From Candidatus Omnitrophota bacterium (GTDB lineage Bacteria > Ratteibacteria > UBA8468 > B48-G9 > JAFGKM01), in contig QNCF01000001.1 of assembly GCA_003644395.1 (NCBI GenBank), positions 1 to 35,686 on the forward strand: a DNA stretch of 35,686 nucleotides, given 5' to 3'. Of the stretch, positions 2-17,889 are shown piece by piece; the first letter of the stretch is position 1, and the number at the start of each line of letters is the position of its first letter. A model generated the notes under the pieces. It did no database searches. It saw only the letters and a list, made by a program, of their open reading frames with translations, and was not told where the DNA came from. Both the position numbers and the translations under genes were made by a program.

Positions 2-115
2 AATATTGAATTATTCTTAAAAGGGAACAATCTCCTTGATACCTATTATGAAGAATTTTACTCTTATGGAACTGAAGGGAGAAGTATTTATGGTGGTTTA
101 ACAGTAAGATTCTGA
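2..115 (+). CDS. TonB-dependent outer-membrane receptor, C-terminal fragment (5' end lies outside the window)
   Basis: An open frame runs in from the window edge: NIELFLKGNNLLDTYYEEFYSYGTEGRSIYGGLTVRF-stop. A final beta-strand ending in a terminal Phe is the classic C-terminus of TonB-dependent receptors. The stop TGA (113-115) overlaps the ATG of the next gene (TGATG). It is absent from the ORF track because it has no start codon in the window. Confidence 0.55.
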   Translation, partial: NIELFLKGNNLLDTYYEEFYSYGTEGRSIYGGLTVRF

Positions 116-990
116 TGAGGAAATTTTTATTAATTTTATTTTCAGCTATATTTTTATATGGACAGAATTATAAAAGGGTTGTCTCTCTTGGACCATATAT
201 CACAGAAAATCTCCATCTTCTCGGAATAGATAAGGAGATAATTGGAGTAACGATACATGAGAGAGAAGAAAGGAAAAAGGGGAAGGAAATTATAGGGACT
301 TTATTGCAGCCAAATACTGAAAAAATCCTTTCCCTTAAACCAGATTTGGTAATAGCATCCAAGGAAGGAAATACACGCCAGAGTGTGGAGAAACTCAAAT
401 CTGTGGGATTGAAAGTTGTGGTAACTGGAGAAATATTTAATTTCAAGAGTATATGTGATAATTTTCTTTATTTGGCAAGGATTTTTAATAAGGAGAAGAC
501 TGGAAAAGAAATTGTAAAAAGGGAAAAGGAAAGACTGGAAAGATTAAAAAAGTTTTTTTCTAAATACAGAACGAAAAAGGTCTTCTTCTGCCTTGGAATA
601 AAACCACTTTTCACAGCAGGGGGTAAATCCTATATAGATGAAATGATAAGATTTGCAGGAGGTAAAAATATTTTTGGAGATATTAAAAGGAAATACATTC
701 CGGTAAGTTTTGAAGAAGTTATTAAAAGGGACCCTGATGTTATCATTCAGGTGAAAATGGGTTCTGACTTTTTATGGAATAAATTTGAGAATTTAAAAGC
801 TGTAAAAAATAATAGAGTTTTTAAAGTTGAACCAACCCTCTTCTGCAGTCCAACCCCGAAAAGTTTTGTTGATGCAGTTGAAAAGATTGGTAGATTAATC
901 CACGGAGAGAAAATTAAAGATGAAAAAATTAGTTATTTTAATTTTACTGGTGATTTTAAGTATAATTGCAGGTATTTGTTTAGGCTCTGA
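115..990 (+). CDS. Periplasmic substrate-binding protein of a BtuF/FhuD-type (cobalamin / iron-siderophore / heme class) ABC importer
   Basis: 291 aa with a signal-like N-terminus MRKFLLILFSAIFLYG. The blocks RVVSLGPYITENLHLLG, EIIGV and LKPDLVIAS are typical of this binding-protein class. It sits in an operon with a FecCD permease and an ATPase. The last 71 nt overlap the permease ORF. Confidence 0.75.
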   Translation: MRKFLLILFSAIFLYGQNYKRVVSLGPYITENLHLLGIDKEIIGVTIHEREERKKGKEIIGTLLQPNTEKILSLKPDLVIASKEGNTRQSVEKLKSVGLKVVVTGEIFNFKSICDNFLYLARIFNKEKTGKEIVKREKERLERLKKFFSKYRTKKVFFCLGIKPLFTAGGKSYIDEMIRFAGGKNIFGDIKRKYIPVSFEEVIKRDPDVIIQVKMGSDFLWNKFENLKAVKNNRVFKVEPTLFCSPTPKSFVDAVEKIGRLIHGEKIKDEKISYFNFTGDFKYNCRYLFRL

Positions 991-1873
991 ATTCCTCTCT
1001 CCTTTAAAGATTTTTAAGATAAAGTATCTTGAAGATTTTGAAAGGAAGATAATATTTGATTTAAGATTACCCCGTGTGATGGCTGGATTTTTCACAGGAG
1101 GTGGACTTGCAATTACAGGTGCTGTTTTACAGGGACTTTTAAAAAATCCACTTGCAGAAAGTTATACACTTGGAATTTCTGGAGGAGCGTCTTTGGGGAT
1201 ATGTATAGGTGTGATAATTGGTAAATACCTGTGCATCCCTTTATTTGGATTCATTGGCGGAATTATAAGCACACTCATAATTGTAATTGCTGGCTCAAAA
1301 AAGAATTTATCAAATCCTTCACTGATATTGCTTGGAGTAATCTTAAATTTCATCTTCTCTTCTTTTGTCCTTTTTATCCTTGCGATATCTGAAAGGGAAA
1401 GATTCCAGCAGAGTTTTTTCTGGCTTATTGGAGACCTTTCTTATTTTCCATATTTTCTTTTTAAACCAGCCATACTTATAATTCTGTTTTTCTCCATTTT
1501 CATCCTGACTTTTTCAAGGCAACTTGACATCATAAGCATTGGAGAAGAAAAAGCAAAAACCCTTGGAGTTGAAAGCGAGAAAGTTAAAAAGATACTTTTT
1601 ATTTTTTCTTCAATAATAACAGGAAGTTGTGTGAGCCTTGGAGGTATGATAGGGTTTGTCGGTCTTATCGTTCCTCATATTTCAAGAATATTTTTTGGTT
1701 CAGCCCATTTAAAAATTCTTCCTGTAAGTTTCATTCTTGGAGGGTGTCTTCTTACTCTTGCTGATACAATTGCAAGGACTGTAATAAGTCCGATTGAAAT
1801 CCCTGTTGGTGTAATAACGAGCCTTTTTGGTGGATTATTTTTCCTCTTCCTTCTTTTAAGGAAAAAGACCTGA
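920..1873 (+). CDS. FecCD/BtuC-family ABC transporter permease
   Basis: 317 aa, multi-TM. Family blocks: LRLPRVMAGFFTGGGLAITGAVLQGLLKNPLAESYTLGISGGASLG and GMIGFVGLIVPHISR. Confidence 0.85.
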   Translation: MKKLVILILLVILSIIAGICLGSEFLSPLKIFKIKYLEDFERKIIFDLRLPRVMAGFFTGGGLAITGAVLQGLLKNPLAESYTLGISGGASLGICIGVIIGKYLCIPLFGFIGGIISTLIIVIAGSKKNLSNPSLILLGVILNFIFSSFVLFILAISERERFQQSFFWLIGDLSYFPYFLFKPAILIILFFSIFILTFSRQLDIISIGEEKAKTLGVESEKVKKILFIFSSIITGSCVSLGGMIGFVGLIVPHISRIFFGSAHLKILPVSFILGGCLLTLADTIARTVISPIEIPVGVITSLFGGLFFLFLLLRKKT

Positions 1874-1874
1874 T

Positions 1875-2663
1875 ATGGAAGAGATTTTGAAAGTTGATGG
1901 AATTAATTGTGGTTATGGTAAAAAGCCTGTTCTTAAGAATATCTCTTTTTCGGTAAAAGAGGGAGAAATTGTTGGAATTATAGGGCCAAATGGTTCTGGT
2001 AAAACAACTCTTGCAAAAGTGATAAGCAGAAATCTGAAACCTTACAGTGGATATGTTTATTATAAAGGGAAAGATATATTCAAACTCCATCCAATTTTAT
2101 TTTCAAGACAAATTGCCTATCTACCATCAGATTTTGAGATTTATTTCCCTTATTCTGTTGAGGAATTTGTAAGCATGGGCAGATTTCCATACACAGGTAG
2201 ATTTGGAACTCTAAAAAAGGATGACAGGGAAGCAATTAATGAGAGTCTGCATCTTCTTGATATTTTCAATCTTAAGGACAGGAATGTTCAGGAACTTTCT
2301 GAAGGAGAAAAGCAAAGAGTCTTCCTTGCACAGGTCATTGCACAGCAGACTCCTCTTCTTCTTCTTGATGAACCTGTTTCTCATCTTGATATAGGATATA
2401 AATTCTCAATAATGGATTTATTGAAAAGGTTGAATAAAGAAAGAGGTATTACTGTTTTGATAATTCTCCATGACCTAAACCTTGCATCTGAATACTGTGA
2501 CAGGCTGATTCTTCTGCATAAAGGTTGTATTTATAAAGATGGAAGTCCTGATGAAGTTTTGGAATACAAGATTATTGAAGAAGTTTATGAAACAAAAGTC
2601 CTTGTATACAAAAATCCCTTCACAAATAGACCATATGTATTTGGAATACCTGAAAAAATTTAA
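1875..2663 (+). CDS. ABC transporter ATP-binding protein (FepC/BtuD-like)
   Basis: 262 aa with Walker A GPNGSGKTT, ABC signature LSEGEKQRV, Walker B LLLLDEP and H-loop ILHD. It starts 1 nt after the permease stop. Confidence 0.9.
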   Translation: MEEILKVDGINCGYGKKPVLKNISFSVKEGEIVGIIGPNGSGKTTLAKVISRNLKPYSGYVYYKGKDIFKLHPILFSRQIAYLPSDFEIYFPYSVEEFVSMGRFPYTGRFGTLKKDDREAINESLHLLDIFNLKDRNVQELSEGEKQRVFLAQVIAQQTPLLLLDEPVSHLDIGYKFSIMDLLKRLNKERGITVLIILHDLNLASEYCDRLILLHKGCIYKDGSPDEVLEYKIIEEVYETKVLVYKNPFTNRPYVFGIPEKI

Positions 2664-2710: not shown

Positions 2711-4090
2711 ATGAAAAGTGCTATTTATGAAAAAGTTGGTGTAAAGATTGTTTATGGAGCTCTTGTCCATAAAGGAACCCATGAAGGACCATGCAGAATA
2801 GGAGATAAAAAATCTTTATCTCTGGAGAATGAAAGAAAATTGGCTAAAGAGGATTTTTCAAATTTTGTAAAAGAAGTGGAAAGGAATATAAATAAGGAAT
2901 ATGCTGAACTGCTGGAACCTGTTTATATTGAATACTTTGAGGATTTCATTATAAAAGAGAGCGAATTTAAAAAATTAGAAAAAGATCTGGAAAATGTTGA
3001 TTTATTTCTTTTAAAAGGAAGAATCCCTGGCATTGAAAGGTATAAAAAACCTGTTTGTATGATTGGTAAGGGAGTGACAAATGTTGATGTTTCAGCATAT
3101 ATGAGAAGCAGAGGGTTTGAGGGTTACGCAATTTTTGATTTTAACCATCTTAATGATTTAATTTATCTGCTTAAAGTTAGAAAATCAATTAAAAAAACAA
3201 AAATATTGAGAATATCCGGTGGTGAAGAAATACCATGGGGAGTTGTAAGCAGTATATATGATTTTGAAAAAATTAAAGATAAATATGGAACAGAAGTTAA
3301 AACAATTCTTTTTGATGAGTTTTTTGGAGAAATGGAAGAAATAGAGAAAAAAGAAACAGAAGAGGCTGAAAAGATTTACAGTAAACTGGTTAAAGAAGCA
3401 GTAAAGGTACATATGAAGAAGGAAGATATAATTGGCAGTATTTATTTTTATTTAACAGCAAGAAGTTTAATGGGGAAATTTAACTGTAATGCTTTTACCT
3501 GCTCCTGTTTTGAACTTTGCAGTACACAGATTCCTGAAAAGAAAAAATTTACTCCATGTCTTACCCACACTCTTTTGAAAGATGAAGGGTTTCCCTCTTC
3601 CTGTGAAGAAGATATAAGTGTACTTCTGGCTATGGCTATTTTAATGTATCTTTCAAAAAAATCTTCTTACATGGGAAATCCTTATGTTGTGGATAAAAAC
3701 ATTTTAAGGATAATTCACGATGTTCCTGGAATAAAAATGAAAGGACTTGATAAAGAACCACTTCAATATGAAATAAGAAATTTTACAGTTGCTGGATGGG
3801 GAGTAAATATAAGGTATGATTTTTCTCAGGATAAAGGAGAAAAAGTTACACTTGCAAGATTTGATCCGCTTGGTGAAAAAATCCTCGTTGTGAAAGGGGA
3901 GATATTGAAAGGATTGAATTTCAATGAGATTGGATGTTCCTTAGGTGTTGAAATTAAAGTATCTGATGCAATGGAATATTTCAATAAGGCTGGAGATTTT
4001 GGCCACCACCTTGCCATGGTTTACGGAGATTATACAGAAAAGATTAAAAAACTTGCCAGATTGATGGATTTTGAAGTTGTTGAAGTTTAA
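2711..4090 (+). CDS. AraA/FucI-superfamily isomerase-like protein, paralog 1 (Asn-type)
   Basis: 459 aa, with SD GGAGGTGGAGG directly upstream. Core motifs: FTCSC, TPC-x14-CEED-x21-N (SSYMGNPYV), IIHDVPG, IGCSLGVEIKV, GHHLAMVYGDY. The CExD...MGN...H pattern aligns with the AEGD...FMED...H catalytic core of E. coli L-arabinose isomerase (recalled from memory). Confidence 0.7.
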   Translation: MKSAIYEKVGVKIVYGALVHKGTHEGPCRIGDKKSLSLENERKLAKEDFSNFVKEVERNINKEYAELLEPVYIEYFEDFIIKESEFKKLEKDLENVDLFLLKGRIPGIERYKKPVCMIGKGVTNVDVSAYMRSRGFEGYAIFDFNHLNDLIYLLKVRKSIKKTKILRISGGEEIPWGVVSSIYDFEKIKDKYGTEVKTILFDEFFGEMEEIEKKETEEAEKIYSKLVKEAVKVHMKKEDIIGSIYFYLTARSLMGKFNCNAFTCSCFELCSTQIPEKKKFTPCLTHTLLKDEGFPSSCEEDISVLLAMAILMYLSKKSSYMGNPYVVDKNILRIIHDVPGIKMKGLDKEPLQYEIRNFTVAGWGVNIRYDFSQDKGEKVTLARFDPLGEKILVVKGEILKGLNFNEIGCSLGVEIKVSDAMEYFNKAGDFGHHLAMVYGDYTEKIKKLARLMDFEVVEV

Positions 4091-4111
4091 TGGTTAAAAA
4101 AGGGGGTAATT

Positions 4112-5437
4112 ATGGATGGTGAGAAAAGTAAAAAGGTGCTTTACATTCAGATATTCGGGAATAAAACTGAAAATGTTGAAAAAGCAAAAAAGGAAATAAA
4201 AGAAATAGCAGGAGATATTGTTGAATTTTTGCCTGATGTTATTTTTGATAAAAAGATACCTTCAGATATCTCTCCTTATTTAAATATAAAAACAGATATT
4301 GTTGTGCCTTTATTTCTGGGACTTGATGTTGAACCATTTGCTTACATAAAAAAACCAATCATTTTATGGACAGAGGGCGGGTATTATGGAGCATGGTCAA
4401 AAGACCTCAATTCTTTTTTAACCTTAAAGGGAGCAGAAGTTTACCAGTTTATAACTCCATCTGAGGCCAGAGAGACATTGAAAGTTTTAAGAACAAGAAA
4501 AAGAATGAGTAAAAGTAAAATTTTATATTTTGGAGAAATGGCAGGAACAACTGCTCACAGAGACCTTTCTGGAGTGATAGGTTCTGACTGGAATCTGGAA
4601 AGGGTAAAGGATGTTTTTGGGTGCATCGTTAAACAGATACCGATGGATTATCTCTTAAAAGAAGTGGATAAAGTGAATCTGGATTCAGCAAAAGAAGAAT
4701 TTAAAGAATGGGAAGATAAAGTTGAGGATTTTGGAGATATAAGCAAAGATGGTTATCTGGAGGTTGTAAAATTTTATCTTGCAATGAAAAAAATATTAAA
4801 AGAACAGGATGCAGATGCATTAACAATAAACTGTTTATCAGATTTATTTAAGAAAAAATTCATTACACCATGCCAGGCTCTTGCAAAACTGAACGATGAA
4901 GATATACCAGCAGGTTGCGAAGGTGATCTGAACGCCTTGCTTACAATGATGGTTTTCCATTATACAACAGATACTCCTTCCATTATGGGAAATATTTATC
5001 TTTTCAGACCGGAAAATGGGCCTGGATTTCCACCTCCTGAAGTCAGAGTTGCTGATGCAAAAGAATACCTTTCTCAAAATAAAGCAAGATTCACTCATGA
5101 TGTAATTCCATTGAGAATTGCAAAAAGCAAATATTTTCTCACCACTTATCACAACAGTGGTAAAGGAATAACAGGATATGCTGAATTACCAAAAGGTGAA
5201 ATAACTGTTGCAAGAATAGGCCCAGAAGCAAATAGAATGGTGATTACAACTGCTGAAATTGTAGAAGTTGAAAAATCTGGACATTGTTCATTCTCTGCTT
5301 ATTTAAAAATGAAAAACCTTGAAGAATATCTGAGGCAAACATCATCAATTCACAATGTAATCACTTATGGGAACCATATAAGCGAAATAAAAAAATTGGG
5401 AAAAATAATGAATCTTAAAGTTGTTGAAATTGGATAG
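4112..5437 (+). CDS. AraA/FucI-superfamily isomerase-like protein, paralog 2 (Asn-type)
   Basis: 441 aa, SD GGGGG. Core motifs: LTINC, TPC-x14-CEGD-x21-N (PSIMGNIYL), FTHDVIP, GHCSFSAYLKM, IHNVITYGNH. Closest in motif wording to paralog 5. Confidence 0.7.
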   Translation: MDGEKSKKVLYIQIFGNKTENVEKAKKEIKEIAGDIVEFLPDVIFDKKIPSDISPYLNIKTDIVVPLFLGLDVEPFAYIKKPIILWTEGGYYGAWSKDLNSFLTLKGAEVYQFITPSEARETLKVLRTRKRMSKSKILYFGEMAGTTAHRDLSGVIGSDWNLERVKDVFGCIVKQIPMDYLLKEVDKVNLDSAKEEFKEWEDKVEDFGDISKDGYLEVVKFYLAMKKILKEQDADALTINCLSDLFKKKFITPCQALAKLNDEDIPAGCEGDLNALLTMMVFHYTTDTPSIMGNIYLFRPENGPGFPPPEVRVADAKEYLSQNKARFTHDVIPLRIAKSKYFLTTYHNSGKGITGYAELPKGEITVARIGPEANRMVITTAEIVEVEKSGHCSFSAYLKMKNLEEYLRQTSSIHNVITYGNHISEIKKLGKIMNLKVVEIG

Positions 5438-5450
5438 AAAGGAAGAAAAA

Positions 5451-6812
5451 ATGAAAGAATTAAATGTAAAGCCACTCCTTATTTATCAACTCCCTGAGAG
5501 AAAAAAACAGAGGAGCTGGCGTCCATGGGGAGGTATACAGACAGAGGATGATTTAAAGGAAGAGATAAATAGAATCAATAAAGAAATTGAAGAATTATTA
5601 CATAAAATAGAATTCCCGTGCAGGATATTGCCATTAACTCCAATTGACAGAAAAGATAAAATAGACAGCCAGGAGATTAATTATTCAGATGTTCTGTTAA
5701 TTTATGCAGCAGGTGGTTCTGTAGATATTTTAGATAAATTAACTTCTTATGGGAAACCTGTTATCTTTTTTATAAGGCATAGATCTGGGCCGATTTATTA
5801 CTGGTATGAAGTTATCCACCCGACTTTTCTCCGTAGAAAGACTGATGATATTTCAAGAGGAGATGTTGGTGTAGAAGATATAGTTATAGATGATTATGAT
5901 GAGATCTTATGGAGGTTAAGAAGCATTTATGGTTTAAAAAATACGATAGGGAAAAGGATAATTGCTGTAGGAGGGCCTTCTGGATGGGGAGAAATTTCTG
6001 GAAGAGATGCACCTTTTCTTGCAAGGAAGATATGGCACCTTGATATAATAGATTTTCCTTATCCAGAACTTGGAGAAAGAATAAAAAAAGAAAAGAATAA
6101 AATTTTAAATGAATGCGAAAGGAAAGCCAGAGAGTATCTCCAGCAGGGAAATATCACTCTTGAGACAGATGAGAAATTTGTAATAAATTCTTTTCTTCTT
6201 TATAAAATTTTTAAAGATTTATTGATTGAATACAAATCCGATGCAATAACAATAAATTACTGTATGAATACTATTATGCCTTTAGCAGAAACTACAGCCT
6301 GTCTCCCTTTGAGTTTACTCAATGATGAGGGATACCTCGCTTTCTGTGAATCAGATTTTGTTGTTATACCATCCGGTATCCTTTTACATCATATTTCAGG
6401 TAAACCAGTATTTCTTAATGACCCGACAACTCCTCATAATGGAATAGTAACTCTTGCTCATTGTACAGCACCGAGAAAGATGGATGGGAAAAATTATGAA
6501 CCAGCAAAAATAGTTACGCATTTTGAATCGGATTATGGAGCATCCCCAAAAGTTGAATTCAAAAAAGGACAGCAAGTAACAGTAATAGTTCCTGATTTCA
6601 GTGGAAAGTTATGGATAGGGTTTAAAGGGAAAATACTGGAATCCCCTTCCTTCCCTATATGCCGTTCTCAAGTAGAGGTGGAAATAGAAGGAGACTGGAA
6701 GAAATTATTGCAGAAGATGAGGGGATTTCACTGGATGATGTGTTATGGAGATTACCTGAAAGAAGTCGGATATGCATTGAAAAAAGTTGGTATAAAATTT
6801 GAAATTGTTTAA
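5451..6812 (+). CDS. AraA/FucI-superfamily isomerase-like protein, paralog 3 (Asp-type)
   Basis: The track ORF starts at TTG 5421. I prefer ATG 5451 (MKELNVKPLL), which follows AGGAAG. Core motifs: ITINYC, TAC-x14-CESD-x21-D (VFLNDP), LAHCTAP, ICRSQVEVEI, GFHWMMCYGDY. Closest to paralog 4. Confidence 0.7.
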   Translation: MKELNVKPLLIYQLPERKKQRSWRPWGGIQTEDDLKEEINRINKEIEELLHKIEFPCRILPLTPIDRKDKIDSQEINYSDVLLIYAAGGSVDILDKLTSYGKPVIFFIRHRSGPIYYWYEVIHPTFLRRKTDDISRGDVGVEDIVIDDYDEILWRLRSIYGLKNTIGKRIIAVGGPSGWGEISGRDAPFLARKIWHLDIIDFPYPELGERIKKEKNKILNECERKAREYLQQGNITLETDEKFVINSFLLYKIFKDLLIEYKSDAITINYCMNTIMPLAETTACLPLSLLNDEGYLAFCESDFVVIPSGILLHHISGKPVFLNDPTTPHNGIVTLAHCTAPRKMDGKNYEPAKIVTHFESDYGASPKVEFKKGQQVTVIVPDFSGKLWIGFKGKILESPSFPICRSQVEVEIEGDWKKLLQKMRGFHWMMCYGDYLKEVGYALKKVGIKFEIV

Positions 6813-6823
6813 TGGAGGAAAAG

Positions 6824-8200
6824 ATGGAATTAAGAATTTTAATTATTAAACCACCAAAACAATACCTTTCTGAAAAGGAGAGTGAAAAAGGTTATTGGGG
6901 ATTTGTAAGGTGTAAGAAGGATTATGAGGAGGAAAAAGAAAATATAAATAAGGAATTTAAAAATCTGGTCGGATCAATTAAAAAAGAAGGTATAGAGGCA
7001 AATCTTCTGCCAGCAATAGAAGTTGAAAATATAAGTGATTTATTAAAAAAAGAGAAAGAGATTAAAAAATCTGATGTAAATATAGTCTTAACAATATCCT
7101 GGGGTGGATGGTATTCCTGTGGAGATTTAATACATGGAATAGTTGCTTTATCAGATTATGTGATTTTCTATGATAGTTTTAAGGAGAATATATATGCGGG
7201 AACATTATTTAATCCACCTGCTTATAAATTGCTTGAAAAAAATGGACTTTCAGAAAAAATTTTTCTTGTGGAGGGAGATAAAGAGAAGATAAAAATTATT
7301 CTGAGAGCAATCTATTCATTAAAGAAAATTTCATCTTCAAATCTTGTATGTGTTGGCCCAATGAATCCACTGTTTGGAGGATGGTTTTCTTTTAAAAAAG
7401 GGACTGAAACTTTCGGGTATAAAACTGTATTCTACACATACGATGAATTTGTTGAGGATTTCAATAATTTCATGAAAGATAAGGATAAATGTAAAGAAGC
7501 AAAAAGAGTGATTGAAGAATTCATATCAAACTCAGAAGGAGTTATTGAACCAACAGAAGAAAAACTTCTCAGGGCGGGAATATACTACCTTGTTTTAAAG
7601 AAATATGTGGAGGAAAATGAATCTGATTGGATAACAGTAAACTGCTGGGGTAAACTTATTGAGACAACAGAATCCACACCATGTTTTGCATTTTCAAAAT
7701 TTAATGATGATGGAATAGTTGCAACATGTGAAGCCGACCCAACTGCCATGATTACCCATTATCTTATGAGACATATTTCCGGAAAACCAGCATTTTTTAA
7801 TGACCCAACTGTAAATGAAAAAGATGGAACACTTATACTTGCCCACTGCACCTCTCCAACAAAACTTCTTGGATTCAGTAAACCTCCATTTTCTTATCAA
7901 GTGAGAACACACCATGAATCAAATTATGGAGCAACTCCAAAACTTATATTTAAAGAAGGTAATGTGACAGTAACTGGATTATCTTTTGATATGGAGAAAA
8001 TGCTTATTTTAAAAGGAGAAGTTATTGGCAGTCCTGATTTAAGGATATGTCGGTCTCAGGTGGAGGTAAAAGTGAATAATCCATCAGAAATACTTGAGGA
8101 CTGGCAGGGTTTCCACTGGGTGCTTGTGTATGGAGACTATACTGAAGAGATGGAGATAATCTGCAAGATAAAGAAGATAAAAGGAATTGTTTATAAATAA
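6824..8200 (+). CDS. AraA/FucI-superfamily isomerase-like protein, paralog 4 (Asp-type)
   Basis: The track ORF starts at ATG 6812, which overlaps the upstream TAA. ATG 6824 (MELRILII) sits 5 nt after GGAGG and is the better start. Core motifs: ITVNC, TPC-x14-CEAD-x21-D (AFFNDP), LAHCTSP, ICRSQVEVKV, GFHWVLVYGDY. Confidence 0.7.
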   Translation: MELRILIIKPPKQYLSEKESEKGYWGFVRCKKDYEEEKENINKEFKNLVGSIKKEGIEANLLPAIEVENISDLLKKEKEIKKSDVNIVLTISWGGWYSCGDLIHGIVALSDYVIFYDSFKENIYAGTLFNPPAYKLLEKNGLSEKIFLVEGDKEKIKIILRAIYSLKKISSSNLVCVGPMNPLFGGWFSFKKGTETFGYKTVFYTYDEFVEDFNNFMKDKDKCKEAKRVIEEFISNSEGVIEPTEEKLLRAGIYYLVLKKYVEENESDWITVNCWGKLIETTESTPCFAFSKFNDDGIVATCEADPTAMITHYLMRHISGKPAFFNDPTVNEKDGTLILAHCTSPTKLLGFSKPPFSYQVRTHHESNYGATPKLIFKEGNVTVTGLSFDMEKMLILKGEVIGSPDLRICRSQVEVKVNNPSEILEDWQGFHWVLVYGDYTEEMEIICKIKKIKGIVYK

Positions 8201-8210
8201 GGAGGAGAAA

Positions 8211-9536
8211 ATGAAAGTAAGTATCCAGCCTGTAAATTTAATACCACCTCAAAAAGATATCTCTCAACTTCCAGTTTTAAGGGTGGAGACATGGATAAAG
8301 GGGCCAAAAAAACCAAGAAATTTAAAAAGAATAAAAGAGATACCACCGGAAGATGTAAGTATTGAAAAACTCTGTGAAAAGTTTGACTTTTTGGAAATTC
8401 TTCCTCCCGAAAATATCAGAAAAGTAAGCGATATTGATGGACTTAAAAGGGATGTATCTGCTTATATCATAAGCGGTTATGACCTTGCATTAGCAGGGGA
8501 GATAGCTAAACTTGGAAAGCCAGTTTTACCTTACTGGGATAACTGGGGATATGCATGGAATGGAAGATGGATAAAGGAAGCCAGTGATGAAGCTGGTGGA
8601 GTATGTTTCGTCCCATTTGGTTCTGAAGATATTGAGAAAATTATAAGAGTTTTAAGAGCATATACCTTCATAAGGGAAATGAGAGTATTATATATAGGAG
8701 ATATACCTTCAAACAGTGTTAAAGATGCAAATTATGATTTTACAGACCTTGAAACCAGATTTGGAATACAGTTTATCCACCTGAATTTTGATGATTTATT
8801 AAAAGCAGTTGAAAAAATAAGTGATGAAGAGAGTGGAAAAATAGCAAATCTCTGGAAAGAAAATGCAGAGATTCTTGATGGAAGAGAAAAAAGACTTAAA
8901 GATTATGCAAAAATATATTTGGGATTGAAAAAATTACTGGAGGAATACAATGCCAATGGTTTAACAGTTGATTGTGCTTTTTTACCGAATGTTGAACTTG
9001 TCCCATGTTATTCTTTTGGAATTCTGATAGATGAAGGGATACCATGTGGATGTGAAGGAGATACATCTGCTCTTTTGGGAATGAGCATACTTATGGGTTT
9101 ATCAGGAAAATCTGCATTAATGGGAAACTTATTTGAAAATAATACACATGATGATATTGAAAACAATGTAATTGTAATAAACCATGATGTTGTCCCTCCT
9201 TCTATGGGAGATGGGAAAGAAAAGATAAAATTGAGAGATTTCCATGCATCTAAAAAAGGGCTTACAGGATTTGTAAAACTTAAGGAAGGTGAGAAAGTAA
9301 CTATTGTTGGAATGGACAGGAAAGCAAGAAGAATCTGGTATAGCGAAGGCGAAATTTTATGGACAGAAGATACAGTCCATTGCAGAACAAGTATCGGTAT
9401 AAAAGTAAAAGATGCAAAAAGAATTGGAAAAGAAAGTTTTGGTCATCATCAGGCAATCTCTTATGGAAACCTATGTGATGAAATTGAAATGCTTGGAAAA
9501 ATATTTAAAATAGAAACCATAAATTTAGGAAAATGA
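8211..9536 (+). CDS. AraA/FucI-superfamily isomerase-like protein, paralog 5 (Asn-type)
   Basis: The track ORF starts at TTG 8187. ATG 8211 (MKVSIQP) follows GGAGGAG. Core motifs: LTVDC, VPC-x14-CEGD-x21-N (SALMGNLFE), INHDVVP, VHCRTSIGIKV, GHHQAISYGN. Confidence 0.7.
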   Translation: MKVSIQPVNLIPPQKDISQLPVLRVETWIKGPKKPRNLKRIKEIPPEDVSIEKLCEKFDFLEILPPENIRKVSDIDGLKRDVSAYIISGYDLALAGEIAKLGKPVLPYWDNWGYAWNGRWIKEASDEAGGVCFVPFGSEDIEKIIRVLRAYTFIREMRVLYIGDIPSNSVKDANYDFTDLETRFGIQFIHLNFDDLLKAVEKISDEESGKIANLWKENAEILDGREKRLKDYAKIYLGLKKLLEEYNANGLTVDCAFLPNVELVPCYSFGILIDEGIPCGCEGDTSALLGMSILMGLSGKSALMGNLFENNTHDDIENNVIVINHDVVPPSMGDGKEKIKLRDFHASKKGLTGFVKLKEGEKVTIVGMDRKARRIWYSEGEILWTEDTVHCRTSIGIKVKDAKRIGKESFGHHQAISYGNLCDEIEMLGKIFKIETINLGK

Positions 9537-9547
9537 GGAGGGGGAAA

Positions 9548-10858
9548 ATGGAAAAGGCGAAGGTAAAAGTTGTATTTCCAGCAGTTGAAAAAGGGCATCC
9601 TACCTGGCCATATATAAATTATGATGTTGAGAAAAGGGCAAAAGATGTGATGAGTATTCTGGAAAAGCAATTGCCTGAAATTGAATTTTCTTACCATGTT
9701 ATTTATGAAAAAGAGAAGGCAAAAAAATTGGTTGAGGAAGAAAAGGGAAGATATGATGGATATTTAGTCTATATGACATCAATGTGGACAGAAATACCGG
9801 AAACAATGGCGAAGATGGGAATCCCTTTAATTGTTGCAGATGAAATCTATTCTGGCTCTGGAGGATTGCTCAGAACAAACTCACTTGTAAAAAAAGAAAA
9901 TTTACCTGTTGTCTGTATTGGCTCTTCAAATTTCAATGATATTATAAAGGCTGTAAAATTATTTTCTGTAATGAAGAGGATGAGAGAATCAAAAATTCTT
10001 GTTGTTGCAGATGGGGAATCATGGGGAAGCAGCAATAGAAAGATAAAAAAGATAAAGGAAATTTTTGGAACAGATGTGATAAGAATGACTTCAGAGGAAT
10101 TAAATTCATATTATAAAAAAGTTGATAAAGAAAAGGCAGAAAAATATAAGGATAAATGGATAAAAGAAGCGCTGAAGGTTGTTGAACCCACAGAAGAAGA
10201 GATATTAAAATCAGCAAAAATGCATCTGGCAATTAAAAAAGCAATGGAAGATAAGAAAGCAGATGCAATAACAATTGATTGTCTTGGACTCTATTATTCC
10301 GGTAAACTTTTTGCTTATCCATGCCTTTCTTTCTTTGAATTAAATAATGAAGGTTCAACAGGTGTATGTGAGGCAGATTTAGATTCTGCAGTAACACAGC
10401 TTTTAATAAGGTATTTAACAGGAAGACCCGGTTATGTTTCTGACCCTGTCATTGATACCGCAACAAACCAGATAATTTATGCTCACTGTGTGGCAACCAG
10501 TAAAGTTTATGGCCCTGATGGTTTAAGCAATCCATATATAATACGTTCACATGCAGAAGACAAAAAAGGTGCATGTGTCCAATCACTATTACCGACAGGG
10601 GAGACAGTAACAACAGTTAAAGTGAGTTCCTTAGATAAAGCATTCTCTATACATACAGGTAAAACAATTGGGAATGTTGAGGATGAAAAGGGATGCAGAA
10701 CAAAACTGGCAGCAGAAGTTGATGCAGAAAAAATACTTAATAATTTCCATTTTGAAATATTTTCCTGGCACAGGGTAACTTTTTATGGAGATTACAGAAA
10801 AGAAATGATGGATCTTGCAACTCTTTATGGACTTAAAATTTATCAGGAAGATAAATAA
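9548..10858 (+). CDS. AraA/FucI-superfamily isomerase-like protein, paralog 6 (Asp-type)
   Basis: The track ORF starts at ATG 9533, which overlaps the upstream TGA. ATG 9548 (MEKAKVKVV) follows GGAGGGGG. Core motifs: ITIDC, YPC-x14-CEAD-x21-D (GYVSDP), YAHCVAT, KGCRTKLAAEV, SWHRVTFYGDY. Confidence 0.7.
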   Translation: MEKAKVKVVFPAVEKGHPTWPYINYDVEKRAKDVMSILEKQLPEIEFSYHVIYEKEKAKKLVEEEKGRYDGYLVYMTSMWTEIPETMAKMGIPLIVADEIYSGSGGLLRTNSLVKKENLPVVCIGSSNFNDIIKAVKLFSVMKRMRESKILVVADGESWGSSNRKIKKIKEIFGTDVIRMTSEELNSYYKKVDKEKAEKYKDKWIKEALKVVEPTEEEILKSAKMHLAIKKAMEDKKADAITIDCLGLYYSGKLFAYPCLSFFELNNEGSTGVCEADLDSAVTQLLIRYLTGRPGYVSDPVIDTATNQIIYAHCVATSKVYGPDGLSNPYIIRSHAEDKKGACVQSLLPTGETVTTVKVSSLDKAFSIHTGKTIGNVEDEKGCRTKLAAEVDAEKILNNFHFEIFSWHRVTFYGDYRKEMMDLATLYGLKIYQEDK

Positions 10859-10874: not shown

Positions 10875-11639
10875 ATGGATAGATTAATAGCAGGTATCCA
10901 GCTTTACACATTAAGGGGATTTTGCAAAGATTTAAAGGGGATAGAGGAGACTTTTAAAAAGATAAGGAAAATAGGATACAGGGCTGTACAGATTTCAGGT
11001 ATAGGAGAGATTGATTTTAAAGAGTTGAAGAAAATCCTTGATGATAATGGATTGTATGCATGTTCAACTCACACACCTTATGAGAGAATAATAAATGAGA
11101 CTGAAAAAGTTATTGAAGAGCATAAAATACTGGGATGTGAAGGTATTTTCTGCCCTGGGCTTCCAAAGGAATTAAGAAAAGGGAAAGAAGGATATCTGGA
11201 AGCAGCGAAAGAGTTCAAGAAAGTTATCAAAAAGATAAAGAAGGAAGGTCTTATCCTTGGATACCATAACCATGGCGTGGAATTTGAAAGATTTGGTAAA
11301 AAGACAGGACTTGAAATTTTACTTGATGGATGTAAAGAACTTGAAGTTGAAATTGATACATACTGGGTGCAGTATGGAGGAGGAGACCCTGCATACTGGA
11401 TAGAAAAATATTCAGGTAGAGTAAGCCAGATACATTTAAAGGATATGGGAATAATTGATAATAAACAGGTTATGCCTCCAATCGGTGAAGGGAATTTAAA
11501 CTGGGAAAGGATTATAAAAGCATGCAGGAAGGCAAAAGTTAAATATTGTCTTGTTGAGATTGATGAACCAACAATAGAACCATTTGAAGCAATTGAAAGG
11601 AGCCTTAAATTTTTGAAAAAATTTGGAATAAAGCCCTAA
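10875..11639 (+). CDS. Xylose-isomerase-like TIM-barrel protein (sugar phosphate isomerase/epimerase family)
   Basis: 254 aa, SD GGAGGGG. Typical family blocks: IQLYTLR near the N-terminus, GYHNHGVEF, VEIDTYW, IHLKD, LVEIDEP (metal-ligand-like E/D/H/E pattern). It is the last gene of the + operon. Confidence 0.75.
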   Translation: MDRLIAGIQLYTLRGFCKDLKGIEETFKKIRKIGYRAVQISGIGEIDFKELKKILDDNGLYACSTHTPYERIINETEKVIEEHKILGCEGIFCPGLPKELRKGKEGYLEAAKEFKKVIKKIKKEGLILGYHNHGVEFERFGKKTGLEILLDGCKELEVEIDTYWVQYGGGDPAYWIEKYSGRVSQIHLKDMGIIDNKQVMPPIGEGNLNWERIIKACRKAKVKYCLVEIDEPTIEPFEAIERSLKFLKKFGIKP

Positions 11640-12823
11640 ACTTTATTTTTTAATTTTTTGATAAGAACAGGTATTATTTCAAAGAGGTCTCCAACAATTC
11701 CAAGATTTGCCACTTTAAAGATTGGTGCATCCGGGTCTTTATTTATGGCTATTATATAATCTGAAGTCTGCATCCCTGCAAGATGCTGGATTGCTCCTGA
11801 TATTCCACATGCTATATAAACTTTTGGTTTAACAGTCTTTCCAGTCTGACCAACCTGATGAGGATATCCTATCCATCCTGCATCAACTGCTGCACGTGAA
11901 GCCCCAACAGCGCCACCAAGCAATTCAGCAAGTTCCCATATCATTGAAAAGTTTTTACCATCCCTCAATCCCCTGCCTCCAGATACTATTATTTCTGCCT
12001 CCTGTAAATCCACAACATTTTTTGTCATTTCCCTTTTTATAATCTTCACCCTTTTATTTACAGAAAATGATGAAAATTCTTCAATTATCAATTTCCCATC
12101 AGGGTTATCCTTAATTTTTGCTTCTTCAATAATTTTTGGTCTTATTGTTGCCATCTGGGGTCTGTGGTCTCTGCATACTATCTTTGCCATAAGATTCCCA
12201 CCAAATGTTGGCCTTATCTGTACAAGGAGTTTACTTTCATTATCAATATCTATTCCTGTACAGTCAGCTGTAAGCCCTGTTCCAATCCTTGCAGCGACTG
12301 ATGGAATGAAAGACCTTCCAGCCATTGTTGCTGAAGCAAGCAAGATAGAAGGTTTATATCTTTCAATAAGCTGGGAAAGGATATCAATATATGGTTCTTC
12401 CTGGAATTCTTCAAGTGAATCATCTTTCACAATATAAACTTTTTCCGCTCCCCTTTTTATAAGTTCCCTTCCCATCTCCTCAACATTCTTTCCGCCAATA
12501 ATAACCCCTGATACTTCTTCACCCAGTTTTTCTTTCAATTTCAAACATGCATTTAAAAGTTCAAAAGAGACAGATAACAATTTTCCTTTCTTTTGTTCTG
12601 CAAAAAACCATATCCCTTTATATTTTGATATATCTTTTTTCCTTTCCTTCTCTACAATTAAAATTGCATTTTGAGGACACTCCTTAACACATATACCGCA
12701 AAGCCTGCAATTCTCATTTATTACAATCTTTCCCTCTTTTTCCTCAATTCCACCGAATGGACATTTCTCAATACAGATTCTGCAAAGATTACATTTTTCA
12801 TAAAGAATTTTTATTCCCATCAC
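11636..12823 (-). CDS. etfA: Electron transfer flavoprotein alpha subunit with an N-terminal 2x[4Fe-4S] ferredoxin domain
   Basis: 395 aa. Two CxxCxxCxxxCP motifs (CNLCRICIEKCP, CRLCGICVKECP) are followed by the EtfA body: VSGGRGL, ASRAAVDAGW, QVGQTGKTVKPKVYIACGISGAIQH. There is a 4-nt start/stop overlap with etfB. Confidence 0.85.
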   Translation of the reverse strand: MMGIKILYEKCNLCRICIEKCPFGGIEEKEGKIVINENCRLCGICVKECPQNAILIVEKERKKDISKYKGIWFFAEQKKGKLLSVSFELLNACLKLKEKLGEEVSGVIIGGKNVEEMGRELIKRGAEKVYIVKDDSLEEFQEEPYIDILSQLIERYKPSILLASATMAGRSFIPSVAARIGTGLTADCTGIDIDNESKLLVQIRPTFGGNLMAKIVCRDHRPQMATIRPKIIEEAKIKDNPDGKLIIEEFSSFSVNKRVKIIKREMTKNVVDLQEAEIIVSGGRGLRDGKNFSMIWELAELLGGAVGASRAAVDAGWIGYPHQVGQTGKTVKPKVYIACGISGAIQHLAGMQTSDYIIAINKDPDAPIFKVANLGIVGDLFEIIPVLIKKLKNKV

Positions 12824-13611
12824 AATATACCCTGTTTTTTAAGTTCTTTTAAAATCTCATCTGCCATTTCTTCTGCACTCCCGCTTAATTTTCTTCCCTC
12901 TTTCTTCACCGTATGTTTCCAGATATCAATAACCCTTGTCGGTGAACCATCCTGTCCAAATCTCTCCTCATCTCCACCAATATCTTTTGCACCCCATTTT
13001 TTTATCTCTGCTTTTTTTGATTTTAAAAGCCCTTTAAGTGATGGTATCCTTGGCTCATTTATTTCTTTAACAACTGTAATTAAAACAGGTAGAGGACTTT
13101 TCAGTATTTCGTAATGGTCCTCAAGCAATCTTTTACATTCAATCTGGTTATTCTCTATGTTTATTATCTGACTCACATATGTGATAAATGGGATTTTCAA
13201 ATTTTCAGCAATTTCAGGCCCAACCTGTCCTGTACTCCCATCCATTGCTTCTTTCCCACATATGATGATATCAAAATTACCTATTTTTTTAATTGCACAG
13301 GAAAGTGTATATGAAGTAGCCAGTGTATCACTTCCAGCAAATTTCATATCTGTAAGTAATATAGCATCATCCACACCCATTGCTATTGCCTCCCGTAATG
13401 CACTTTCTGCCTGAGGAGGACCCATTGATATGGCTATTGTCTCTCCACCAAATCTCTCCTTCAATCTCAAACCCTCTTCAATTGCATACATATCATATGG
13501 ATTTATAATTCCTTTCACACTATCCCTCTTTATCCTTTTTGTCTCATTATCAATTTCAACTTCAAAAGTCTCAGGAACCTGTTTGATACAGACTATTATT
13601 CTCATCGTCAC
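12820..13611 (-). CDS. etfB: Electron transfer flavoprotein beta subunit
   Basis: 263 aa with RIIVCIKQVP, AISMGPPQA, KFAGSDTLATS and CGKEAMDGSTGQVGP. There is a 4-nt overlap with the upstream MocA gene. Confidence 0.85.
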   Translation of the reverse strand: MTMRIIVCIKQVPETFEVEIDNETKRIKRDSVKGIINPYDMYAIEEGLRLKERFGGETIAISMGPPQAESALREAIAMGVDDAILLTDMKFAGSDTLATSYTLSCAIKKIGNFDIIICGKEAMDGSTGQVGPEIAENLKIPFITYVSQIINIENNQIECKRLLEDHYEILKSPLPVLITVVKEINEPRIPSLKGLLKSKKAEIKKWGAKDIGGDEERFGQDGSPTRVIDIWKHTVKKEGRKLSGSAEEMADEILKELKKQGIL

Positions 13612-14585
13612 TTAACTGATTTGTAAACCATCTCTGTTAATCTTACAACTTTTTCAATAACTGAAAAATCTGTATTTGGTTTTTTATTATTCCTTATGCA
13701 TTCTATAAAATCCTCTGCTGGAGTTTTAACAGAAGGAGATATTTTCCTTATAGGGGAGGGGGATTTCTCACCATTGATATGTATATAGGAATCTTCTCCT
13801 GCACTGCTAACTTTAATAACTCCCTTTTCTCCCCATATAAGCAGTGCTTCTCTAAATCCAGGGTCTATCCCCAGAATTCCAAAATTTCCTATAGCACCCT
13901 CTTTAAATTTCACTATGAATGATGTGTTTATATCCACCTTCATACCACGGTAATCAATGAAAGAATATACATCAGAAGGTGTCAAATCTGTAAGGAAAAA
14001 TAACATTGCAAGGAAATGGCTTCCTGAATCCATAAGCTGTCCGCCACCTGATATTTCAGGGTCAAACCTCCATGTTCTTTTTGTCCTTTTTATAAGTTCA
14101 ATCCATCCCTGAGCAAGGTATCCACATACAAAAATTATCTTTCCAATCCTTCCATTTTTAATCTCCTCTCTTGCTCCAAGGAAAGTTCCGAGATAATGCC
14201 TCTGGTATCCAACAACAAACACCTTTTTCTTTTCCTCAAGTAATCTTTTAACTTCAGATAGTTCTTCAGAATTTATAACTGCAGGCTTTTCAACAAGAAT
14301 ATGTAAATTATTCTCTAAGGCAAGTTTAATCTGTGGAAAATGGTATTTATGTGGTGAGCATATTACAACTCCATCAATATTGCCACTTTTAATAATTTCT
14401 TCCTCTGAAGAATATATCCTTACATTCCCTGCATCTTTTGAAAACCTTTCAGAATTCCCTTTATCAGGGTCAAAAACTCCTGTTATTTTTACTCCATCAA
14501 TATTCTTCAGTACCTCCAGATGTTTATATGCTATTGAACCACACCCTATAAATCCAATCCTTATTTCATCATTTTTCTGGCACAT
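13608..14585 (-). CDS. Gfo/Idh/MocA-family NAD(P)-dependent oxidoreductase
   Basis: 325 aa with the N-terminal Rossmann motif IGFIGCGSIA, the EKP motif (ILVEKPAV) and a typical C-terminal alpha/beta domain. The start overlaps the upstream gene by 17 nt. Confidence 0.8.
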   Translation of the reverse strand: MCQKNDEIRIGFIGCGSIAYKHLEVLKNIDGVKITGVFDPDKGNSERFSKDAGNVRIYSSEEEIIKSGNIDGVVICSPHKYHFPQIKLALENNLHILVEKPAVINSEELSEVKRLLEEKKKVFVVGYQRHYLGTFLGAREEIKNGRIGKIIFVCGYLAQGWIELIKRTKRTWRFDPEISGGGQLMDSGSHFLAMLFFLTDLTPSDVYSFIDYRGMKVDINTSFIVKFKEGAIGNFGILGIDPGFREALLIWGEKGVIKVSSAGEDSYIHINGEKSPSPIRKISPSVKTPAEDFIECIRNNKKPNTDFSVIEKVVRLTEMVYKSVK

Positions 14586-17094: not shown

Positions 17095-17842
17095 TTTCTA
17101 TTCTGTTAAGAAGGTAAATAATCTCATCCATATCCTGGAACCTTTCCTTAGGGTCTTCCTTTGTTGAAACTTCTATAATATGAGAAATCTCATTTGTAAT
17201 TGGGAAATTCAATTGAGAAAATATATTCTCCATACTTTTTCCAAAAGAATAGATATCCACTCTTTTATCAATCCTTCCCTGATAGACTTCAGGAGCAATA
17301 TATCCTCTCGTTCCACCAGAAGAAGGCGGATTTTTCCAGAAAATAAATCTCTTTTTCCTTGCAAGTCCAAAATCTGTAATCTTTACTTTTTTCAGAGAGT
17401 AGGAGAGTAATATATTTGAAGGATTGAAATCTTTATGGATGATACCCTTTTTATGAAGATAAGAAAGACCCAAAGCAGATTTTTTCAATATTTCTATAAT
17501 CTTTTCAAATGTGAATACTTCCTTTTTCGTTTTTATCATCTTATTCAGGTCAATATCCAGAAGTTCCATGAAAATAAAAAAATTTCCTTCATATTCCACA
17601 AAATCATAGACTTTTACTATATTCTCATGTTCAAGTGACATTGCAATATGTGCTTCATTTTTAAACCTTTTAATCTGCTCCTTTTCAATTCTTCTTGGAT
17701 GCAATACTTTAACAGCAATTACATTTCCAAAAGGAGGGTTAAGTGTAACACTTGTTGCTTTATAGACTGTGGAAAATCCTCCTGAACCAACCATCTCCTC
17801 AAGTCTGTATCCCTTTACCACAAATCCAGACCTTACCTTCAT
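17078..17842 (-). CDS. Hanks-type Ser/Thr protein kinase, catalytic domain only, with an atypical catalytic loop
   Basis: 254 aa with Gly loop GSGGFSTV, VAIK-type Lys in IAVKVL, catalytic loop HKDFNPSN (canonical HRDLKPxN), DFG (ITDFGLA) and APE (YIAPE). There are no extra domains or TM segments. The stop overlaps the start of the 841 aa fusion by 17 nt. Confidence 0.8.
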   Translation of the reverse strand: MKVRSGFVVKGYRLEEMVGSGGFSTVYKATSVTLNPPFGNVIAVKVLHPRRIEKEQIKRFKNEAHIAMSLEHENIVKVYDFVEYEGNFFIFMELLDIDLNKMIKTKKEVFTFEKIIEILKKSALGLSYLHKKGIIHKDFNPSNILLSYSLKKVKITDFGLARKKRFIFWKNPPSSGGTRGYIAPEVYQGRIDKRVDIYSFGKSMENIFSQLNFPITNEISHIIEVSTKEDPKERFQDMDEIIYLLNRIENGKRV

Positions 17843-17861: not shown

Positions 17862-17889
17862 ATTTTAAACCATTTAAAATTTTTGTCAA
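17862..17889 (-). promoter_or_regulatory. Possible sigma70-type promoter for the kinase-to-etfA sub-operon
   Basis: Read on the minus strand: TTGACA (17889-17884), a 16 nt spacer, then TAAAAT (17867-17862), ending 19 nt before the kinase ATG. The -35 hexamer contains the TGA stop of the upstream gene. No SD lies between the -10 and the ATG. Confidence 0.35.

Follow-up and report, generated by a model that had tools for sequence, protein, structure and literature searches.

Six tandem AraA/FucI-like paralogs point to two stable variants of a candidate active site in a large cysteine-rich branch of sugar isomerase relatives

The AraA/FucI superfamily of sugar isomerases is the workhorse of rare-sugar biotechnology (tagatose, ribulose, fuculose); its mechanism relies on two carboxylates and a metal, and AraA and FucI themselves are hexamers with active sites at the subunit interfaces. 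Here we describe six tandem paralogs from this superfamily, P1 to P6 in gene order, encoded on the forward strand at positions 2711-10858 of a 35,686-nucleotide (nt) stretch of Candidatus Omnitrophota DNA (contig QNCF01000001.1; the whole stretch is hereafter called the window). The analysis points to two stable active-site variants, one with Asp and one with Asn at a single aligned position, within a known superfamily, in an uncharacterised branch of very large size. The reading we favour, with modest confidence, is that the six are divergent members of the AraA/FucI branch belonging to two ancient subfamilies, each a working isomerase with its own substrate.

Among solved structures AraA (E. 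coli 2AJT and 4F2D; Geobacillus 4R1P) is the nearest sequence relative of the paralogs (profile E values of 1e-4 to 2e-18) and has its three-domain fold in common with them over the full length, at ~12-16% identity; the paralogs are about 40-60 residues shorter. The distance from the catalytic Glu to the second acid is 27 residues in AraA and 24 in the paralogs, and the second acid is Glu in AraA but Asp or Asn, with a one-residue uncertainty in register, in the paralogs, where four cysteines replace AraA F279, G290, G305 and one C-terminal residue. FucI (E. coli 1FUI; S. pneumoniae 4C20-22; the Aeribacillus D-arabinose isomerase 3A9R) shares the fold core, the 24-residue spacing between Glu (E337) and the second carboxylate (D361) and a similar motif of Phe, a small residue and an acid. 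Unlike the paralogs, it is ~590 residues long with extra N-terminal parts, and its Mn ligands (E337, D361 and H528) include no equivalent of the paralog His that follows the Asp/Asn position; it also lacks the four cysteines. A third assayed aldose-ketose isomerase of the superfamily, SftI (NF048012; a model of 443 positions, close to the paralog length), is the sulfoquinovose isomerase of the sulfo-SFT pathway (PMC11968277).

The six open reading frames (ORFs) encode proteins of 441-463 amino acids (aa), separated by -17 to +21 nt. They are listed here with the codons of key residues, and are called N-type or D-type after the residue at the position under study:
2711-4090, forward strand: P1, 459 aa, N-type (GN...HD); C266 3506-3508, C283 3557-3559, C298-E299 3602-3607, D301 3611-3613, G322-N323 3674-3679, H336-D337 3716-3721, C409 3935-3937, H433 4007-4009
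4112-5437, forward strand: P2, 441 aa, N-type (GN...HD); E270 4919-4921, N294 4991-4993, H329-D330 5096-5101, H414 5351-5353
5421-6812, forward strand: P3, 463 aa, D-type (ND-P...HC); E310 6348-6350, D334 6420-6422, H347-C348 6459-6464, H437 6729-6731
6812-8200, forward strand: P4, 462 aa, D-type (ND-P...HC); E307 7730-7732, D331 7802-7804, H345-C346 7844-7849, H435 8114-8116
8187-9536, forward strand: P5, 449 aa, N-type (MGN...NHD); E290 9054-9056, N314 9126-9128, H333-D334 9183-9188, H421 9447-9449
9533-10858, forward strand: P6, 441 aa, D-type (SD-P...HC), overlapping P5 by 4 nt; E280 10370-10372, D304 10442-10444, H318-C319 10484-10489, H413 10769-10771
P3 and P5 are listed with TTG starts; their true starts are likely the in-frame ATG codons at 5451 and 8211, respectively.

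AlphaFold2 models were built for P4, from an 86-sequence alignment, and for P5, and were compared with the PDB by Foldseek. Both models (predicted local distance difference test, pLDDT, 95.5 and predicted template modelling score, pTM, 0.94 for P4; pLDDT 92.0 for P5) matched AraA at template modelling (TM) scores of 0.70-0.77 and FucI at 0.66-0.74 over the full length with probability 1.00, at sequence identities of 10-16%, and no structure in the PDB was closer. From the models it is clear that the six proteins are members of the AraA/FucI fold, in keeping with a preliminary description of this DNA, made from its letters alone, that set them beside FucI and AraA. Curated family models were more reserved, none of the paralogs reaching the cut-off of the AraA, FucI or SftI models. 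Against NCBIfam AraA (NF002795, cut-off 622 bits) P5 scored best at 42.4 bits, P2 and P6 scored 16-17 and P1, P3 and P4 gave no match. The gathering score of Pfam AraA_central was passed by P5 alone (32.8 vs 24), other matches to this domain being weak; Fucose_iso_C was hit only by P1, below gathering (17.2 bits vs 29.3), and Fucose_iso_N1 and N2 by none of the six. SftI was the top NCBIfam model for all six paralogs and ten relatives (E 1e-5 to 2e-21), but at 23.7-76.2 bits against a cut-off of 700 the paralogs are not SftI, and ten solo N-type relatives from bacteria (27-66 bits vs 700) were rejected as true SftI as well. No sulfoglycolysis genes, such as those for an SftT transaldolase, an SftR reductase or a sulfoquinovosidase, were found in the window: Pfam scans of the neighbouring genes showed an ATP-binding cassette (ABC) importer, a TIM barrel, EtfAB and a GFO/IDH/MocA oxidoreductase, and gave no transaldolase. 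A profile search of 1.84 billion cluster representatives returned 3,752 relatives at E<=1e-3, of which 1,053 passed E<=1e-30, and annotated relatives among plasmids had generic names only. Within the AraA/FucI superfamily this family makes up a large branch, rich in cysteine and uncharacterised.

A script found a single CExD motif in each protein (CEED, CEGD, CESD, CEAD, CEGD and CEAD in P1 to P6) and, exactly 24 residues after its Glu, N323, N294, D334, D331, N314 and D304, in the contexts SYMGNP, SIMGNI, VFLNDP, AFFNDP, ALMGNL and GYVSDP. MAFFT placed all six residues in one column, and the pattern is one homologous alignment column, not a chance coincidence; the order N, N, D, D, N, D given in the preliminary description was reproduced by script and alignment alike. 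The next invariant His follows the same split, again as first described, with IIHDVPG, FTHDVIP and INHDVVP in the N-type and LAHCTAP, LAHCTSP and YAHCVAT in the D-type proteins. The loop from the Asp/Asn column to this His varies in length (13, 14, 19 or 35 residues), a 22-residue insertion separating Asn from His in P2. The six paralogs are 20-35% identical to each other, and mutual best matches in an all-against-all BLAST comparison group P3 with P4 and P6, and P1 with P2 and P5.

The split is not confined to the window. D was found in 44 of 45 orthologs of P4 (41-99% identity); among 80 orthologs of P5 (39-100% identity) all have N and G322 and 79 have HD; and S-D-P...HC is present in all 120 orthologs of P6 (56-100% identity), the largest orthogroup with 3,463 matches. 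When 276 non-redundant members were placed on a neighbour-joining tree, 14 parsimony changes sufficed for the column, against a mean of 91 and a minimum of 82 with shuffled states. Free interconversion of Asp and Asn among orthologs, which the preliminary description had named as speaking against its proposal, was thus absent both from the ortholog counts and from the tree. The Asp/Asn split marks two ancient, stably inherited subfamilies, not a point change.

A family alignment of 206 sequences (P1 numbering; 45 of them P4 orthologs) shows what the two subfamilies share. C266, C283, C298, D301, H336, C409 and H433 are near-invariant, column E299 holds E in 185 and Q in 9 of 198 sequences, and both His, invariant in the six paralogs, are also invariant among ~198 family members. 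Column 323 (n=206) has D in 118, N in 75, E in 4 and G in 1, with 8 gaps from fragments; once the P4 orthologs are set aside, D and N are about equally common among diverse representatives. The distance from Glu to this column is 24 profile positions family-wide, and the column before it is variable (G/S/N/A/T/V/Y). Asp at 323 always occurs with HC and nearly always with Pro at 324. Asn occurs with HD in the P1, P2 and P5 clades, always with Gly at 322, and also with HC, in a separate clade, or with HS, HA or HN. In a distant clade that has lost the fourth Cys, the column holds Glu (L135, L137, L143-L146, L148, L149 and L152, L numbers denoting related loci) or a Gly-preceded Asp (L136, L138-L141 and L147); in L136 and L141 the distant-clade gene adjoins an AraA-like gene (TEGD...FVEY...GHD) without any of the four Cys.

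Is the Asp/Asn column the catalytic carboxylate? The E. coli MG1655 FucI sequence confirmed the spacing given in the preliminary description, with E337 (ATENDS) and D361 (VFADV) 24 residues apart, and also H528; AraA has E306, E333, H350 and H450. In an hhalign comparison of the P5 orthogroup with AraA (probability 95%), E290 aligned to E306, H333 to H350 and H421 to H450, in agreement with hidden Markov model (HMM) alignments, in which CExD falls on AraA GEGD, the CExD Glu on FucI E337 and the C-terminal His (the H433 column) on FucI H528. Three of the four AraA ligands (E306, H350 and H450) are therefore mapped cleanly, and the doubt concerns the fourth. An ungapped register that sets the Asp/Asn column on D361 was the top-scoring one across the whole FucI sequence (z 4.1), and the family clade whose column residue is Glu has TGQPAHFGE where FucI has TGTAQVFAD. 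An hhalign comparison of the P5 profile with the single FucI sequence gave no significant match in the catalytic region.

The AraA alignments give a different answer. They insert four residues, not three, so that the variable preceding column lands on E333 and the Asp/Asn column on D334, a placement obtained with an HMM search of the PDB, hhalign, hmmsearch with an 86-sequence profile, a strand-block scan and a profile of the GE/GD clade; the strand-block scan, restricted to strands, favoured D334 even with the Asp/Asn column itself excluded (z 3.3-3.9). On D334 the side chain may point away from the metal. It is possible, if less probable than a ligand role, that the column is not a metal carboxylate at all but points to the opposite face of the strand, forming a buried polar pair, Asp-Cys or Asn-Asp, with the His-following residue. 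In that case the split would reflect second-shell structure, and the second carboxylate would be wholly lacking. Consistent with a contacting pair, columns 323 and 337 co-vary perfectly (D always with C), and the DSSP strands of the P4 model (328-335 and 340-345) fit slightly better with residue 330 opposite His345, although arguments from hairpin parity and from the DSSP limits of both models are weak, the loop to the His being of variable length. The D334 equivalent is Val in FucI, so a superfamily-wide role is absent there, whereas the acid position is conserved across the superfamily. Apart from the single Gly counted above, the family column is always D, N or E, while Gly, Ala or Val, none of which can bind metal, are frequent in the column before it, and both the identical spacing and the highest-scoring ungapped register favour FucI. 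We consider that the column is probably, with a good deal of room left for doubt, the equivalent of FucI D361 and AraA E333. The prediction of a catalytic carboxylate in the preliminary description is favoured by the FucI register and spacing and opposed by the AraA profile alignments.

The same description had suggested that the Asn half might have become regulatory or scaffolding. In its fuller form this alternative holds that the Asn half has lost catalysis and partners the Asp half in regulation, scaffolding or sugar binding. In its favour, Asn is incapable of general-base catalysis, the column is compatible with the position of a FucI catalytic base, and some N/D gene pairs are conserved. 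The 80 P5 orthologs, however, with identities down to 39%, all keep Glu, both His and all four Cys, and a degenerate N-type site is not expected because these residues are invariant over such deep divergence. N-types make up about half of the sampled family, form large orthogroups, often lack a nearby D-type and are in many cases the sole family member in sugar operons, and D and N gene counts vary freely from array to array. Loss of catalysis in the Asn half is accordingly highly unlikely, and the regulatory or scaffolding role was not sustained. From the sequences, both subtypes look like working enzymes, rather than three active and three inactive copies.

Under the favoured reading of two working subfamilies, each paralog would interconvert aldoses and ketoses in a metal-dependent manner, with a sugar specificity of its own, and the window would encode a bank of six isomerases plus a TIM-barrel isomerase/epimerase that interconvert glycan-derived sugars. 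The D-type site would resemble that of FucI and AraA, His ligands being joined by two carboxylates. For the N-type, Asn may bind the metal as a neutral ligand or take part in hydrogen bonding, and a second carboxylate may come from the Asp after the His ligand (the HD motif). Several observations weigh against this reading. Every profile alignment to AraA puts the Asp/Asn column on D334, beside the catalytic E333; no paralog attains the AraA, FucI or SftI cut-off; a relocated carboxylate leaves the N...HC clade and the N-types with HA, HS or HN uncovered; the four invariant Cys without AraA or FucI counterpart suggest that the active site may depart considerably from the textbook one; the importer upstream of P1 is of the cobalamin/heme/siderophore type, not a sugar importer; and we know of no assayed member or solved structure of the cysteine-rich branch.

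The four cysteines (C266, C283, C298 and C409) are the most intriguing feature of the family. They are invariant in the six paralogs, nearly so in ~200 diverse members, and were found in 45 of 45 orthologs of P4, 80 of 80 of P5 and 119-120 of 120 of P6. An HMM alignment sets three of them on AraA F279, G290 and G305, and neither AraA nor FucI has a counterpart of the four. F279 is a substrate-positioning residue, described as a "substrate preference switch" (PMC11172353). D-type proteins carry a fifth Cys directly after the His ligand. The hosts are mostly anaerobes (Bathyarchaeota, Thermoprotei, Thermococci, Bacteroides/Phocaeicola, Bipolaricaulota and Anaerolineae). The four Cys may form an extra metal or iron-sulfur site. 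A disulfide role was considered and is unlikely, the residues being invariant in cytoplasmic proteins of both mesophilic anaerobes and thermophiles.

Near-invariance in ~200 members and three orthogroups, the replacement of a residue of the AraA substrate pocket, the fifth Cys beside the His ligand and the anaerobic hosts would all suit a more radical alternative, in which the proteins are not classical Mn/Co ene-diol isomerases: the four Cys, the Glu and the two His would build an iron-sulfur or thiolate-ligated metal centre for other sugar chemistry, tuned by the Asp/Asn difference. We regard this as rather improbable, since a Cys-poor subfamily (GGSEL...GD...HC) that lacks three of these Cys has Glu, Asp and His intact, and the gene neighbours (sugar kinases, glycosidases and Leloir genes) suit ordinary isomerase roles.

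This third subfamily (GGSEL or GGTEL...GD...HC) is embedded in related arrays. Besides three of the four Cys, it has lost the ExD Asp, and it still has Glu, Asp and His. It was located at:
L015, 3470-6678
L018, 2-997
L121, 2422-5448 and 15738-17093
L154, 8386-9810
L155, 1-2421 and 3945-4976

Both types occur on their own. A solo P5-like gene in a Thermococcus metagenome-assembled genome is the first gene of a GalE-GalT-GalK operon, which diverges from a ribose/galactose-type sugar ABC transporter, and further solo P5-like genes are found in Chloroflexota, Bacteroidota and other Thermococci. P2 orthologs (36-89% identity) are mostly solo genes, with solo copies in at least seven metagenomic loci (L098, L102, L103, L108, L110, L112 and L113; flanks per side from a few kb up to 8 kb), and in cultured species of Phocaeicola and Bacteroides, as well as in Bipolaricaulota, members of the N...HC clade stand alone. 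N-type orthogroups span both domains of life. On the D-type side, P4 orthologs are solo in Bathyarchaeota and Thermoprotei, where they adjoin GH42, GH38 or GH31 glycosidases and PfkB kinases, and a P6 ortholog adjoins an FGGY kinase, a TIM-barrel gene and GH5. An obligate N/D partnership is argued against by these many solo occurrences.

Arrays, which reach six or seven paralogs, are fluid in composition. P1-like relatives (38-51% identity; N with HA, HN or HD) occur in L012, L046, L047, L092 and L121, and P3 orthologs in L007 (83%), L097 (61%), L015 (63%) and L154 (54%). L007 retains P2-P3-P4 at 83-89% identity; the closest P5 relatives (72-74%; L012 and L092) have a P1-like N-type partner and no D-type nearby; L154 is an all-D array; and L155 and L121 combine N-types, D-types and the Cys-poor subfamily. 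The 3+3 pattern is not a conserved stoichiometry, related arrays being all-D, all-N or mixed, and the check proposed in the preliminary description, whether orthologs elsewhere keep it, gave a negative answer. A fixed six-subunit or 3+3 complex was rejected on the same ground, namely that array composition differs among close relatives (L007, L012, L092 and L155).

Pairing of two particular subunits is a separate matter. In 17 archaeal species (Desulfurococcales, Thermoprotei, Thermofilum and Staphylothermus) a D-type gene lies directly upstream of a P5-like N-type gene, the two overlapping or 2 nt apart, and this D-type is nearest P6 (30-34% identity vs ~20% to the other paralogs). P5 and P6 also overlap in the window, in the opposite order; an N-type gene is followed by a P6-like gene in L155; and a D-type gene follows a P2-like gene in L007, L045, L097, L104, L109 and L119. 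The AraA catalytic region has been described as an inter-subunit interface (PMC11172353). In hetero-oligomeric isomerases, D and N subunits would pair (P5 with P6, perhaps P2 with P3) to create two kinds of active site, or a catalytic and an auxiliary site. Such heteromers are unlikely in our view. Both types are commonly solo with several kb of flank (P4-, P6-, P5- and P2-like genes), the window's closest relatives pair a P5-like with an N-type gene (L012 and L092), the L154 array has D-types only, homologs of P6 outnumber those of P5 by ~40 to one in matches, and the archaeal pairs come from one lineage and may represent a single evolutionary event. The P5-like/P6-like adjacency hints, at the level of gene order, at functional coupling and possibly a heteromer. 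A combined proposal, that the branch is a new cysteine-ligated (iron-sulfur or thiolate-metal) class of sugar-converting enzymes in anaerobes, in which D and N subunits can pair to give two chemically different interface sites, P5-like with P6-like, with an adjacency conserved from bacteria to Thermoprotei, is decidedly improbable when taken jointly.

P5-like genes lie with GalK, GalT, GalE and a ribose/galactose-type sugar ABC transporter in Desulfurococcales and Thermococcus, at:
L094, 6628-9350
L095, 8001-12433
This context points to a galactose-related substrate for P5-like proteins, for example a tagatose/galactose-type isomerisation that may feed the Leloir pathway. For P4, P5 and P6 the nearest relatives that carry a name belong to the archaea (Bathyarchaeota, 57-64% identity), and a few metagenomic sequences at 70-86% identity to P4-P6 are nearer than these archaeal relatives. 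Because the relatives of P4-P6 are archaeal while the window carries bacterial Tol genes, the comparison suggests that paralog genes have been transferred between bacteria and archaea.

Neighbours on the same strand flank the array:
115-2663, forward strand: BtuF/BtuC/heme-type ABC importer (binding protein 115-990, FecCD permease 920-1873, ATPase 1875-2663)
10875-11639, forward strand: xylose-isomerase-like TIM-barrel protein of the sugar isomerase/epimerase class (Pfam AP_endonuc_2, E 4e-19)
The importer and P1 are separated by 47 nt, P6 and the TIM-barrel gene by 16 nt; with such tight spacing on one strand, the importer, the six paralogs and the TIM-barrel gene, ten genes in all, look like one operon, of which the TIM-barrel gene is probably the last. 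Its family also adjoins relatives of the paralogs in L005, L006 and L153. The BtuF/BtuC-type importer is an unusual neighbour for sugar isomerases and is missing from the related arrays L007, L092 and L155.

The rest of the window, which has a guanine-cytosine content of ~33% and gave no RNA elements in an Rfam scan, is bacterial in its genes (TolQ/ExbB, a TolB-like beta-propeller, Sua5, RpiB and a PabB-like protein). Further genes lie beyond the isomerase operon, the nearest of them convergent with it:
11636-14585, reverse strand: EtfA with a two-cluster ferredoxin domain fused at its N terminus, EtfB, and a GFO/IDH/MocA oxidoreductase that matches inositol 2-dehydrogenase best, though below the cut-off
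14569-17094, reverse strand: 841-aa fusion of an M28 peptidase/DUF4910 region and an aminoglycoside 3-N-acetyltransferase-like (Antibiotic_NAT) domain
17078-17842: Ser/Thr protein kinase gene, after the 841-aa fusion gene
17886-19759 and 19756-21972, reverse strand: ORFs of 353 and 277 aa without Pfam match, adjoining a 738-aa protein with several 4Fe-4S ferredoxin-type motifs
By their domain content, the genes at 11636-14585 may form a module that oxidises sugars or cyclitols and includes an electron-transfer flavoprotein.

The branch to which the six paralogs belong is abundant in Bathyarchaeota, Thermoprotei, Chloroflexota, Planctomycetota and gut Bacteroidota, with thousands of clusters, and departs from the textbook enzymes in its four invariant Cys at or near the predicted active site, in its frequent multiplication into arrays and in its two stable versions, one of which swaps the presumed catalytic carboxylate for Asn. 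Caution is therefore advisable before genes of this branch are annotated as fucose or arabinose isomerases. The Leloir, glycosidase and sugar kinase contexts offer concrete candidate substrates. If the N-type is active, it would show the AraA/FucI fold isomerising sugars with an altered acid/base set, and thermostable enzymes with new specificities could follow.

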